Source: Candidatus Altiarchaeota archaeon
GTDB lineage: Archaea > Altiarchaeota > Altiarchaeia > IMC4 > SCGC-AAA252-I15
Assembly: GCA_043804895.1 (NCBI GenBank)
Contig: JAZDIN010000048.1
Span: 1 to 14,494 of the forward strand
Length of the DNA stretch: 14,494 nt
Reading direction: 5' to 3'
The notes under the pieces were generated by a model. That model was not told the DNA's origin and did no database searches. It was given only the letters and a program-made list of their open reading frames with translations. The number at the start of each line of letters is the position of its first letter. The first letter of the stretch is position 1. Positions 3,276 to 12,963 of the stretch are shown piece after piece. The position numbers and the translations under genes are program-made.

Positions 3276-3333
3276 TCAGAGGGACTGAAGCGTCAGCGGA
3301 AGTCCCTCCTTCGTGAACCTTAGTAAGGTTCTA
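3276..3333. repeat. Family A double-hairpin repeat, copy 1 (abuts 3' end of tRNA-Pro)
   Basis: gagggact...agtccctc stem then gaacctt-agt-aaggttc stem; homologous to 4052-4161. Confidence 0.85.
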
Positions 3334-3446: not shown

Positions 3447-4004
3447 CTAGTCTAGGGGTTTTATTTGGTAGCAGGTTCCGTCTGGTTTGAGGATTGGTTT
3501 GTCTGTTTTTGTTGCGGTGGCTGCTGCTGCGGCAAGGGGTACGTTCTCGGTTATTAGGGCCTTTATCATGTTTGGGGGTATTGGTTGGGTTATCCACGCG
3601 TATCCCCTGCCTTCATTGCCTTGGTCCCAGAACTCACGGTATGCTGGGAGCTTTTTCACCGCGTCGTCTATCACATAGATTATCCCTTTTTTGCTGAAGT
3701 AACCTGAGTATTTCACTGCGGAATTTTTCCTTGAGAGGCCTTTCAGTATTGTGATATTCTGGTTTTTGGAGTTGAGGCCTAGACATACCTGCCATTCGCG
3801 GTCTATTTTGTTGTCGTCAGTCTGCTGCGGGACTAGGCCGTATTTGAGGATGTTGTAGGGGTCGGCTTCGCTTCCGTGCATTATCAACCCTGGCAGGTTC
3901 AGGTCAATTGTTGGGGGGATGATTTTCGCAAGACCTATCACTTCTCTTTTGAGACCGTATTTCCTGGCATACTGTGTCACGTCAACCAGGTCAGTCAACG
4001 ACAT
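3447..4004 (-). CDS. Putative ADP-ribosyltransferase-fold protein resembling the NAD-binding lobe of RNA 2'-phosphotransferase Tpt1/KptA
   Basis: 185-aa ORF with ordered motifs LIMHGS (H43), NILKYGLVP, QVCLG, SAVKYS, IIYVID, AWITQPIPPNMI, paralleling LYHGT..I...GL.P..VHLS..A..VI..ID..VWL...VPP.YI of Tpt1/KptA-like domains. Recognised by eye, not by search. Confidence 0.6.
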   Translation of the reverse strand: MSLTDLVDVTQYARKYGLKREVIGLAKIIPPTIDLNLPGLIMHGSEADPYNILKYGLVPQQTDDNKIDREWQVCLGLNSKNQNITILKGLSRKNSAVKYSGYFSKKGIIYVIDDAVKKLPAYREFWDQGNEGRGYAWITQPIPPNMIKALITENVPLAAAAATATKTDKPILKPDGTCYQIKPLD

Positions 4005-4051
4005 AGTCTAGAATGTGTTTCTGCGAAGAAAAATAAGGGGGATTATCACGC

Positions 4052-4161
4052 TCAGAGGGACTGAGCGAAGCGAACACAACCGACCTTTGGTCGGGTGTGT
4101 GTCCGAGACGAACGTCTCGGCCACATGTCCCTCCTTTCGCGAGCCTTTGATAAAGGCTCTG
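4052..4161. repeat. Family A double-hairpin repeat, copy 2 (abuts 3' end of tRNA-Ala), interrupted by a family B insert
   Basis: tcagagggactgagcgaagcgaa[B]gtccctcc...gagccttt-gat-aaaggctct. Compensatory change gaacc/ggttc to gagcc/ggctc relative to copy 1. Confidence 0.85.
4075..4126. mobile_element. Family B 52-bp double-hairpin insert, copy 1 (putative non-autonomous element)
   Basis: cacaaccgac-ctttg-gtcgggtgtgtgtccgagac-gaac-gtctcggccacat. Second copy at 12182-12234; the empty site is at 3301/3302. Confidence 0.75.
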
Positions 4162-4274
4162 TGGACTCGTCGGGATTCGAACCCGAGGCCCCCACCATTC
4201 TGTCGACTGCGGCCGCCAAACGGCTTGCCGCGCCGTTGCCAAGGTGGTGATCTACCGGACTGATCTACGAGCCC
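4162..4274 (-). tRNA. tRNA-Ala(GGC) with 39-nt intron at 37/38
   Basis: Acceptor GGGCTCG/CGAGTCC with G3.U70, D stem GATC/GATC, anticodon stem CCACC/GGTGG, anticodon GGC at 4240-4238, T arm TCGGG-TTCGAAT-CCCGA; 74 nt spliced. Confidence 0.97.
4198..4236 (-). other. tRNA-Ala intron (39 nt, GC-rich hairpin)
   Basis: ACGGCGCGGCAAGCCGTTTGGCGGCCGCAGTCGACAGAA. Central helix UUGG/ACAG with G.A mismatch; closing helix CGGC/GUCG. Confidence 0.92.
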
Positions 4275-4278
4275 TTTG

Positions 4279-4327
4279 TTCTTTCTTTCCGTGCACGCTT
4301 TCTTTCTTTTTAAGAAAGAAAGGGTGC
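4279..4327. repeat. Family C (CTTT/AAAG hairpin) repeat filling the tRNA-Ser/tRNA-Ala spacer
   Basis: ttctttcttt-ccgtgcacg-ctttctttctt-ttt-aagaaagaaagg-gtgc. Same arms as the Thr/Leu intron element; homologous to 12160-12260. Confidence 0.85.
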
Positions 4328-12159: not shown

Positions 12160-12260
12160 TTTTTCTTTTTCGTGCACGTTTCACAACCGACGCTTCGCGT
12201 CGGGTGTGTGTCTGAGACAAAGTCTCAGCCACATTCTTTTTTCTAAAAAGAAAAAGGTGC
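12160..12260. repeat. Family C repeat 3' of tRNA-Leu, interrupted by a family B insert
   Basis: tttttcttttt-cgtgcacg-ttt[B]tcttttt-tct-aaaaagaaaaaggtgc; aligns with 4279-4327 once B is removed. Confidence 0.8.
12182..12234. mobile_element. Family B 53-bp double-hairpin insert, copy 2
   Basis: cacaaccgac-gcttcgc-gtcgggtgtgtgtctgagac-aaa-gtctcagccacat. Differs from copy 1 only at the two hairpin tips and one compensatory pair. Confidence 0.75.
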
Positions 12261-12262
12261 TT

Positions 12263-12431
12263 TGCGGGGGACGAGGTTTGAACTCGCGCAGTCCTTCGAC
12301 ATAGGGTCTCTCAAAACCTACTATTACGCCTCGGAATGTTCTTTCTTTGAACCCGAGGGCCTTTCTTTCTTACGAAGAAAGAAAGGGGCTCTCCTAAGCC
12401 CTACCCATTTGACCAGCTCTGGCACCCCCGC
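12263..12431 (-). tRNA. tRNA-Leu(UAG) with 85-nt intron at 37/38
   Basis: Acceptor GCGGGGG/CCCCCGC, discriminator A, anticodon stem TAGGG/CCCTA, anticodon TAG at 12396-12394, variable arm GTC-GAAG-GAC, T loop TTCAAAC; 84 nt spliced. Confidence 0.97.
12308..12392 (-). other. tRNA-Leu intron (85 nt) carrying a family C element at 12339-12392
   Basis: Full BHB: bulges GG|A and AG|A, helix CUUA/UGAG, closing helix GAGCC/GGUUU. Confidence 0.93.
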
Positions 12432-12713
12432 AAAAGGGAAATTAAGCCTCAAATGGCCGTCTAAGTATAATGAAGTCATGAAATAAATAGGAAACCACAA
12501 GTCGATTCAGGACAATATCACACTTAACCCGCACTTTTTTCGCATGTACCAAGGCACGCCCATTTGACAAGAAGCCGCAGACAGGCGTACAGGAAAATGG
12601 TCTCGATTTGCCCTTTTCAGGCAAATGTCATATATAAGGCATTCAGTTCATAAAAGCCGTCTATATACCTTATAGGGCTTCTAAAAGGCGTTTAATGGCT
12701 TTTGTGTTTTGGA

Positions 12714-12768
12714 AAGTATTATACACTGTGTGTAATACTCGCAAGTATTATACACTGTGTGTAATACT
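12714..12768. repeat. Two tandem identical 26-bp near-palindromes
   Basis: aagtattatacactgtgtgtaatact at 12714-12739 and 12743-12768, separated by cgc. Each has 12-bp arms with one mismatch. Confidence 0.92.
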
Positions 12769-12963
12769 TTACCCTCTGAAATGCCATACCTATTAAAACG
12801 CCTTAAAATAAAAGCTGTAAGCCCTATTTAGCGTTTCTGGATTATCTTCCCCGAATCTATACCCTGAAACCCCTTGAAATCAATCACAGGCCTAGGTTGC
12901 ACCAGCACAAACAAGCGGCTTACAAGAACAAAAGGTGCAATGATATCGCACATGTAGAGGGGG

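Follow-up and report, generated by a model that had tools for sequence, protein, structure and literature searches.

A mobile double-hairpin element of about 50 bp in Altiarchaeota, with ends that pair with its center

The window, that is, the whole stretch of 14,494 nucleotides analyzed here, is contig C48 of a 1.58-Mb Candidatus Altiarchaeota MAG that is 88.7% complete (G000). Two copies of a short element, B, lie in it, each within a longer repeat in the 3' trailer of a tRNA gene. Copy 1 (4075..4125, no strand assigned) is 51 bp long, has the asymmetric CACA...CCACA form and interrupts a family A repeat (4051..4160) that trails an intron-containing tRNA-Ala(GGC) gene on the minus strand (4162..4274). 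Copy 2 (12182..12233, 52 bp) splits the left stem arm of a family C repeat (12160..12259) at T|T, and the tRNA-Leu(TAG) gene that this repeat trails runs from 12262. The window also holds empty paralogs of both hosts, one of family A behind tRNA-Pro (3276..3332, equivalent junction 3300/3301) and one of family C (4276..4327, junction 4300/4301). A sequence search of the window found both copies where an earlier note on this DNA had placed them; as it also said, they occupy two different host repeats with no target duplication at either, and their sequences diverge in no more than the tips of the hairpins and one C-G/T-A pair. Rfam covariance models gave no match over B at E<=1, and a relaxed ARAGORN run (1192 calls, mostly spurious) was used only where Rfam or inspection agreed.

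Several other features of the window deserve mention. Near-identical family C modules lie in the introns of tRNA-Thr(TGT) (1159-1312) and tRNA-Leu(TAG) (12262-12430). The introns of the tRNA-Leu(TAG) gene are different in other genera, and in G001 and G003 the gene has none; the tRNA-Ala(GGC) homologue is intron-less in G003 (L155) and has an intron of different sequence in G001. An ORF of 185 aa (3447-4004), located between two family A copies and two tRNAs, has no Pfam match; we take its HG...IL..GL.P motif to recall ADP-ribosyltransferase-fold proteins. An AT-rich intergenic stretch at 12713-12770 carries two identical 26-bp units, each nearly palindromic and together forming both a direct and an inverted repeat, which is possibly a protein-binding site or an origin-like element.

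Copy 1 is built of two arms. The left arm (4075..4099) has a CACA foot, an A.G mismatch, a 6-bp stem and a TTT/AAA triloop, and its foot pairs with TGTG at 4096-4099. The right arm (4100..4125), a module common to all subfamilies, has a TGT foot, a 7-bp stem, a 4-nt loop, a 2-nt bulge and a terminal ACA. Joining the two ends in a circle would create the junction ACA|CACA, to which the center, TGTGTGT (4096..4102), is the reverse complement. It had been suggested that the center could pair with either terminal caca; the pairs are indeed possible, but the choice is not either/or, since both ends can be paired simultaneously, TGTG with the left CACA and TGT with the right ACA. The length had been given as 52-53 bp, which we correct to 51 and 52 bp, because the terminal T (4126, 12234) belongs to the host. 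At copy 1 this T lies outside B on the plus strand and is the host T of an N|T target, with G at -4 on the minus strand. Empty hosts of the 12182 type, near-identical to the filled one, keep the T at four loci in three other genera (L266, L267, L277 and L278; genomes G014, G015 and G012), and the in-genome empties of families C, D and G also retain the T that follows CCACA. Family A variants exist with that T or with matching asymmetry. Because empty hosts keep the terminal T, the ends of B are CACA...CCACA, and the predicted circle junction is now ccaca|cacaa instead of gccacat|cacaac.

The two empty sites to which the earlier note points in the window are diverged paralogs and not the alleles from before the insertion. 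Its statement that B splits host stems is correct at 12182 (pairing probabilities 0.99/0.99) but not at 4075, where, as read from the sequence, the insertion borders an internal loop and a single base separates it from the GAGGGAC/GTCCCTC stem. The computed fold of the empty 4075-type site gives junction pairing probabilities of 0.62 and 0.40. In G003 (L163), a family A host is likewise filled by B, at most one base away from where copy 1 sits, which argues against an assembly artefact.

Each window copy folds into a pair of hairpins (DNA z-scores versus shuffles, -4.3 to -7.1). Pairing is found in 99.3% of 441 stem cells, 42 by double changes, and 0/500 shuffles reach the observed pairing, with two of the five measures not significant; on these grounds the stems of B are kept by pairing. 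The ends obey a rule as well. When 23 inserts from seven sequence families, several with boundaries hand-set from diverged paralogs, were folded as circles, a continuous helix ran through the junction in 17, the other 6 being not fully flush. An extra T on the right reduced this to 0/23 and an extra base on the left to 1/23. Ends trimmed inward were still flush in up to 12/23, so only the outward control is informative. Support independent of these folds comes from a fixed host site, where the left end and the center switch jointly (CACA/TGTG versus CGCG/CGCG), and from L272, where the right end and the center do likewise (ACA/TGT to CCA/TGG). The left-end variants that we tabulated were picked by the flush criterion, and their covariation is non-independent evidence. 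Families F and J, which are unrelated to B, have 3+3 junction duplexes of other sequence, and family F shows a compensatory change at the last base pair, while families E, K and M fit the flush-circle rule more poorly. Selection maintains pairing between both ends and the center. The ends are predicted to pair exactly with the center, and the excised circle to be a closed dumbbell.

The loops speak to the nature of the folded molecule. Triloops make up 124 of 182 loops, and 90 have on one strand the form C(RNA)G, presumably a DNA-type motif; CTTCGG is present in only 16 of 91 elements. The preponderance of triloops fits folded DNA better than RNA. These counts weigh against a route through RNA, by which an intron-like circle would be reverse-spliced or reverse-transcribed with the aid of its position in a tRNA trailer or intron. 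Such a route would suit the distance of both window copies from the tRNA 3' end (29-36 bp) and a further copy that sits in a tRNA-Thr intron. However, most B hosts are not tRNA-linked, family A hosts carry B in both orientations, and no RT match was found in G000. Moreover, a bulge-helix-bulge central helix is possible at only 2/52 junction/strand pairs, on which count an archaeal BHB intron is rejected. We rate the RNA route as the least probable of the explanations considered here.

B is common in one order of uncultured archaea. Its right-hand module is present 27 times in G000, whereas 5 Markov-simulated genomes had 0 copies each, and a scan of G000 for right-arm hairpins found 22, across at least ten different host sites. 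A covariance model trained on 21 copies, in which symmetric copies match on both strands and so count twice, gave 23 matches in G000, 12 in G033 and 71 in the B-richest genome, G039; 29/61 genomes of the phylum were positive, as were 0/12 in the two families outside the order. An exact-pattern search of 185,579 species genomes returned 23 loci, among which the double hairpins came from Altiarchaeota-type records and one Saccharibacteria-labelled record. The B locus of the latter (L038) is nearly identical to metagenome loci L107 and L120, and the record is possibly a mis-binned archaeal contig.

Members of the family are 44-59 bp long, which leaves no room for a transposase gene. The right arm is constant in all forms (TGT-stem-CCACA), the left arm varies (CACA, CGCG, CACG, TAT or TCAG), and conservation of the junction and of the first bases of the stem extends over the whole order. 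In a symmetric form, TGTGG...CCACA, the left arm is the inverted right arm; this form, with imperfect inverted ends, accounts for 25/73 non-redundant sites. It invites the reading of B as a micro-MITE, whose inverted ends would be read in double-stranded DNA by a conventional transposase and whose asymmetric form would be a derivative. Yet no site with a known empty allele shows a target duplication, the unrelated left ends covary with the center and not with the right end, and the two DDE families tested in G000 gave no match. A micro-MITE is in our judgment very improbable.

That B is a very small non-autonomous mobile element, nesting in other hairpin repeats without target duplication, had been proposed in the earlier note and holds. 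Checked genome-wide, its flanks are many and different. Filled and empty states occur among relatives: in nine of them, the tRNA-Leu(TAG) trailer contains an empty C-type module in four (G001, G005, G006 and G009), a C module interrupted by another double hairpin in two (G003 and G014) and no module in three, with B in none of the nine; the flanking genes are non-syntenic, and orthology rests on the tRNA. The same trailer can thus be empty, B-filled or other-filled, and B is therefore mobile. Eleven B-filled C modules (G001, G011, G019 and G020) have the same insertion site and different B variants, to which repeated targeting and inheritance of the composite probably both contribute. Of the B-family copies, 23/26 have a flank within a repeat, versus 13.5% of non-coding DNA, a figure inflated by co-spread with the hosts. 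B is not limited to repeats, since it also lies inside genes. A 54-bp copy in G039 (L001:1008-1061) is in frame in a DUF835 gene, to which it adds 18 residues, and a nested symmetric composite (L341:1617-1730, also G039) lies in a tnpB open frame near the zinc finger, with an array of further hairpins after the tnpB gene. Another copy lies within a long ORF (L008). At G039 L183 and L214-L222, B is found within the GAA triloop of another B-family hairpin, and this composite has spread to about a dozen loci; loops therefore tolerate cargo.

B is one of several such inserts. At least four other double hairpins of 50-57 bp, unrelated in sequence, are inserted in hosts of which G000 also has empty copies, for example C8:2478-2530, C11:54048-54102, C47:14622-14678 and C4:118083-118133, and at C4:64917-64975 an E-type left arm is joined to the right arm of B in a hybrid copy. 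Families F and J follow the flush-circle and 3' T rules; families B, E, F and J, unrelated in sequence, have in common the flush architecture and the 3' T. Elsewhere, a long array of varied triloop hairpins with short conserved linkers lies beside a Y1 remnant in G026 (L078).

The target is (G)NNN|T, on either strand. A T lies directly 3' of the insertion on one strand in 43/43 site clusters and a G at -4 in 29/43, compared with 10-21 and 1-7 clusters, respectively, at shifted-offset controls. To obtain these clusters, related hosts were collapsed and 17 of 138 rows were left out because they were chance matches or duplicate strands or because the left end of a nested or tandem copy had been mis-called; by inspection, one dropped row, the outer element of L183, violates N|T with G|C. 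The base that precedes the target T is mostly T, A or G. At 48 sites of the asymmetric form, the T is beside the right end only at 21, the left end only at 11 and both ends at 16. Both orientations of this form face the target T, and either strand can therefore be inserted. Target positions are paired in 11/20 cases versus a background of 44%, which rules out that B needs a paired stem, and with it a four-way junction, as its target.

From the flush-circle and target rules we infer one reciprocal strand exchange by way of a closed dumbbell. B, with its precise ends and many independent sites, would be a DNA insertion element of some 50 bp, non-autonomous and moving in the form of a folded single strand. 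In single-stranded or cruciform-extruded DNA, both hairpins would fold, which would make the two terminal bases neighbors across from the unbroken center; after one pair of cuts and reciprocal rejoining, the element would leave as a covalently closed dumbbell and the site would be empty again. For insertion, the same single-strand exchange would run backward at (G)NNN|T with the dumbbell of either strand, replication would copy it into the other strand, and the enzyme would act in trans. We consider this folded-strand mechanism, with its enzyme in trans, likely.

Our search for the enzyme centered on G000. Profile searches of this genome found no match for PF01797, PF07282, PF00589, PF01548, PF00078, PF00239, PF13358 or PF01609; PF04986 had no match either, and its control was likewise without one. 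By tblastn, 10 Y1 proteins revealed no remnant in G000 (best E 0.15), and none of 20 G000 ORFs with repeats on both sides was transposase-like by eye. Across the phylum, strong Y1 matches (E<1e-15) occur in 8/29 B-positive versus 7/32 B-negative genomes, tyrosine recombinases in 16/29 versus 21/32, IS110 in 3/29 versus 6/32 and resolvases in 4/29 versus 2/32: no transposase family tested tracks B. The Y1 part of the HUH/Y1 reading offered in the earlier note accordingly finds no support here, for want of a Y1 match in G000 and of phylum-wide tracking, and an HUH enzyme of another type may be at work. Of 154 ORFs next to B loci, 96 were scanned and none encoded a transposase, and the Y1 and integrase loci searched had no B match beside them. 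The genome, metagenome and viral matches included no genuine case of a right arm alone next to an ORF, and the 2, 15 and 0 matches from viral scans contained no double hairpin. An autonomous element sharing the ends of B was looked for and not found.

Among the candidates, a tyrosine recombinase of the Xer/integrase type would exchange a single pair of strands between a duplex target and the folded dumbbell, leaving a junction for replication to resolve. Single-strand-pair exchange of this kind, with the junction resolved by replication, is carried out by tyrosine recombinases on CTX phage and integron cassettes. The 6-7 bp central duplex of B, flanked by two arms with similar first bases, would suit such an enzyme, the incoming T can pair with the center base (A or G) opposite the nick, and the B-positive genomes that have a tyrosine recombinase include G039. 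Against this, neither G000 nor G033 has a match, tyrosine recombinases are present in the 21/32 B-negative genomes given above, and the nick falls mid central duplex and not at the duplex edge. Its pairing rule would also permit N|C for a C-starting strand, which is needed at 0/48 asymmetric sites. We hold a tyrosine recombinase to be quite unlikely.

The main rival to an HUH enzyme keeps the same dumbbell and dispenses with a transposase: the exchange would fall to a structure-specific enzyme of the host or to proteins of an unrecognised family, such as a junction resolvase with a ligase for excision and a topoisomerase-like strand transferase for insertion. G000 and G033 carry their 23 and 12 model matches with no match for Y1, tyrosine recombinase, IS110, serine resolvase or TnpB, and G000, which has no RT, DDE_3 or DDE_Tnp_1 match either, yet has Hjc. 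(A PATE-like repeat lies directly upstream of the sole Hjc gene, at G000:C47:16781-17186.) The flush architecture and 3' T common to the unrelated families B, E, F and J also speak for a host activity, as does the four-way junction that B is computed to form within a host stem. However, the order-wide conservation of the junction and first stem bases suggests sequence-specific recognition, IS genes are often lost from MAGs, a resolvase does not explain insertion, and targets are not preferentially paired, so that a four-way junction is unnecessary. A host or unrecognised enzyme is, in our estimate, rather unlikely.

Our best guess for a single enzyme, which we rank first, is an HUH tyrosine nuclease, Y1/RAYT-like and cutting 5' of T. 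In the cited sections, TnpA-REP, an HUH enzyme, cuts C|T, needs a mismatched hairpin with a 5' GTAG and is capable of strand transfer (PMC3333891, PMC3479197); the right arm of B on the minus strand reads TGTGG followed by a hairpin, which we count for this reading. B-family copies are often a few bases from IS200-type end hairpins, and several B hosts in G000 share ends with IS200-type elements of relatives, from which we take it that a TnpA acted in this lineage, although the assembly lacks its gene. Unlike B, the IS608/ISDra2 paradigm, as outlined in PMC3333891, has a single active strand and distant cleavage sites. The REP pairing rule, in the form given in the sections cited, also stands against an HUH enzyme, since a GTGG guide would predict C|C versus the observed N|T (PMC3479197). 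The HUH reading is further weakened because G000, at 88.7% completeness, has no Y1 gene or remnant and because Y1 does not track B across the phylum. The dumbbell mechanism and an HUH nuclease together thus make a tentative proposal, which may well be wrong in its choice of enzyme.

Among known systems, the closest to B by description are SMR-A and SMR-B of Haloquadratum walsbyi, as presented in the sections of PMC3119063 cited here. SMRs and B are alike in being transposase-free, in lacking target duplications and in having ends unrelated to known transposons; SMRs have a strong tendency to insert into PATE and IS605-type palindromes, and B also nests in repeats. SMR mobilisation is there termed enigmatic (PMC3119063). 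The two differ in size (about 110 bp for SMR-A and >=80 bp for SMR-B, versus 44-59 bp for B) and in ends: those of SMRs are prominently inverted, and the window form of B has no inverted ends, these being confined to the symmetric subfamily (25/73 sites). End-center pairing and the N|T target are features of B that do not appear in those sections on SMRs (PMC3119063).

The earlier note had drawn an analogy to IS200/IS605, which our results do not support in that form. PATEs and 52-bp terminal-only IS605 derivatives resemble B in size, two hairpins and the lack of duplication, according to the relevant sections of PMC3119063, and the IS200/IS605 mechanism, as sketched in PMC3333891, probably involves a single-stranded circle, as we propose for B. 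PATEs, in the same partial accounts, have subterminal hairpins, a 4-6 nt target and one active strand; B has hairpins flush with its ends, no conserved 4-5 nt guided target, only the T at +1 being fixed within (G)NNN|T, and either strand is inserted. Nor does B share ends with an autonomous tnpA/tnpB element, and its ends do not match those of Y1 elements in relatives. The IS608 guide-pairing rule did not fit both ends of B when applied by hand. A PATE-like layout is seen in a multicopy IS200-type element of G042, with a TTTAT left boundary and a hairpin 8 nt inside the right end; its six identical 563-bp copies, with subterminal hairpins (L223-L228), have apparently been active recently.

REP, REPIN and BIME units mobilized by RAYTs resemble B, in the sections cited, in doublets with outside tags, in 2-3 nt loops and in an imperfect hairpin, which in B may carry a GT(A/G)G-like foot tag, and likewise in cutting 5' of T, which we propose for B, and in the nesting of some dimers in palindromes (PMC3733652, PMC3116915, PMC3333891, PMC3479197, PMC6006769). 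As far as these sections go, the known REPs are bacterial, a REPIN forms a single long hairpin that is excised asymmetrically, with a tail at its 5' end, and the RAYT gene is usually REP-flanked; no such gene was found for B, in MAGs that are incomplete. The left arm of the window form has no REP-like tag. On the minus strand, the right arm has TGTGG with the variants GTAG and GTGA, but the same bases form the bulge, and the bulge explains the variation equally well. The base before the T is mostly T, A or G, and not the C of C|T cleavage by REP enzymes. B has neither the inverted ends of known transposons nor the target duplication of MITEs. Cyanobacterial small dispersed repeats are, like B, very small, structured and mobile, and their units merge. 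The same is said of mitochondrial GC clusters and double-hairpin elements in the cited part of PMC4478555, a likeness by description only and from another domain of life; those of yeast, unlike B, make 2-3 bp duplications. Full-text searches of the literature yielded no description of such elements in Altiarchaeota or DPANN.

B is a real mobile element of a known but mechanistically unexplained kind. Tiny mobile repeats that leave no duplication have been known since the Haloquadratum SMRs, and their movement is unexplained. B offers a precise, testable substrate, with defined ends, a predicted dumbbell backed by end-center covariation and a simple target rule, and a synthetic 51-mer and a short target suffice for a biochemical search for the enzyme. 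An enzyme for the scarless N|T insertion of a closed dumbbell with cargo-tolerant loops, of which the G039 copies hold whole elements in one loop, would interest recombination biochemists. Families B, E, F and J might even constitute an undescribed class of dumbbell transposons, closed single-stranded circles of about 50 nt whose sole cis requirement would be a nick site in a 6-7 bp duplex between two hairpins, and for whose insertion at (G)NNN|T a single strand exchange would do, catalyzed by a host enzyme or one outside known transposase families; this is a speculative and doubtful extension, which, if true, could also explain the haloarchaeal SMRs. In these small archaeal genomes, B-type elements change tRNA trailers and introns and give proteins additional loops in frame.
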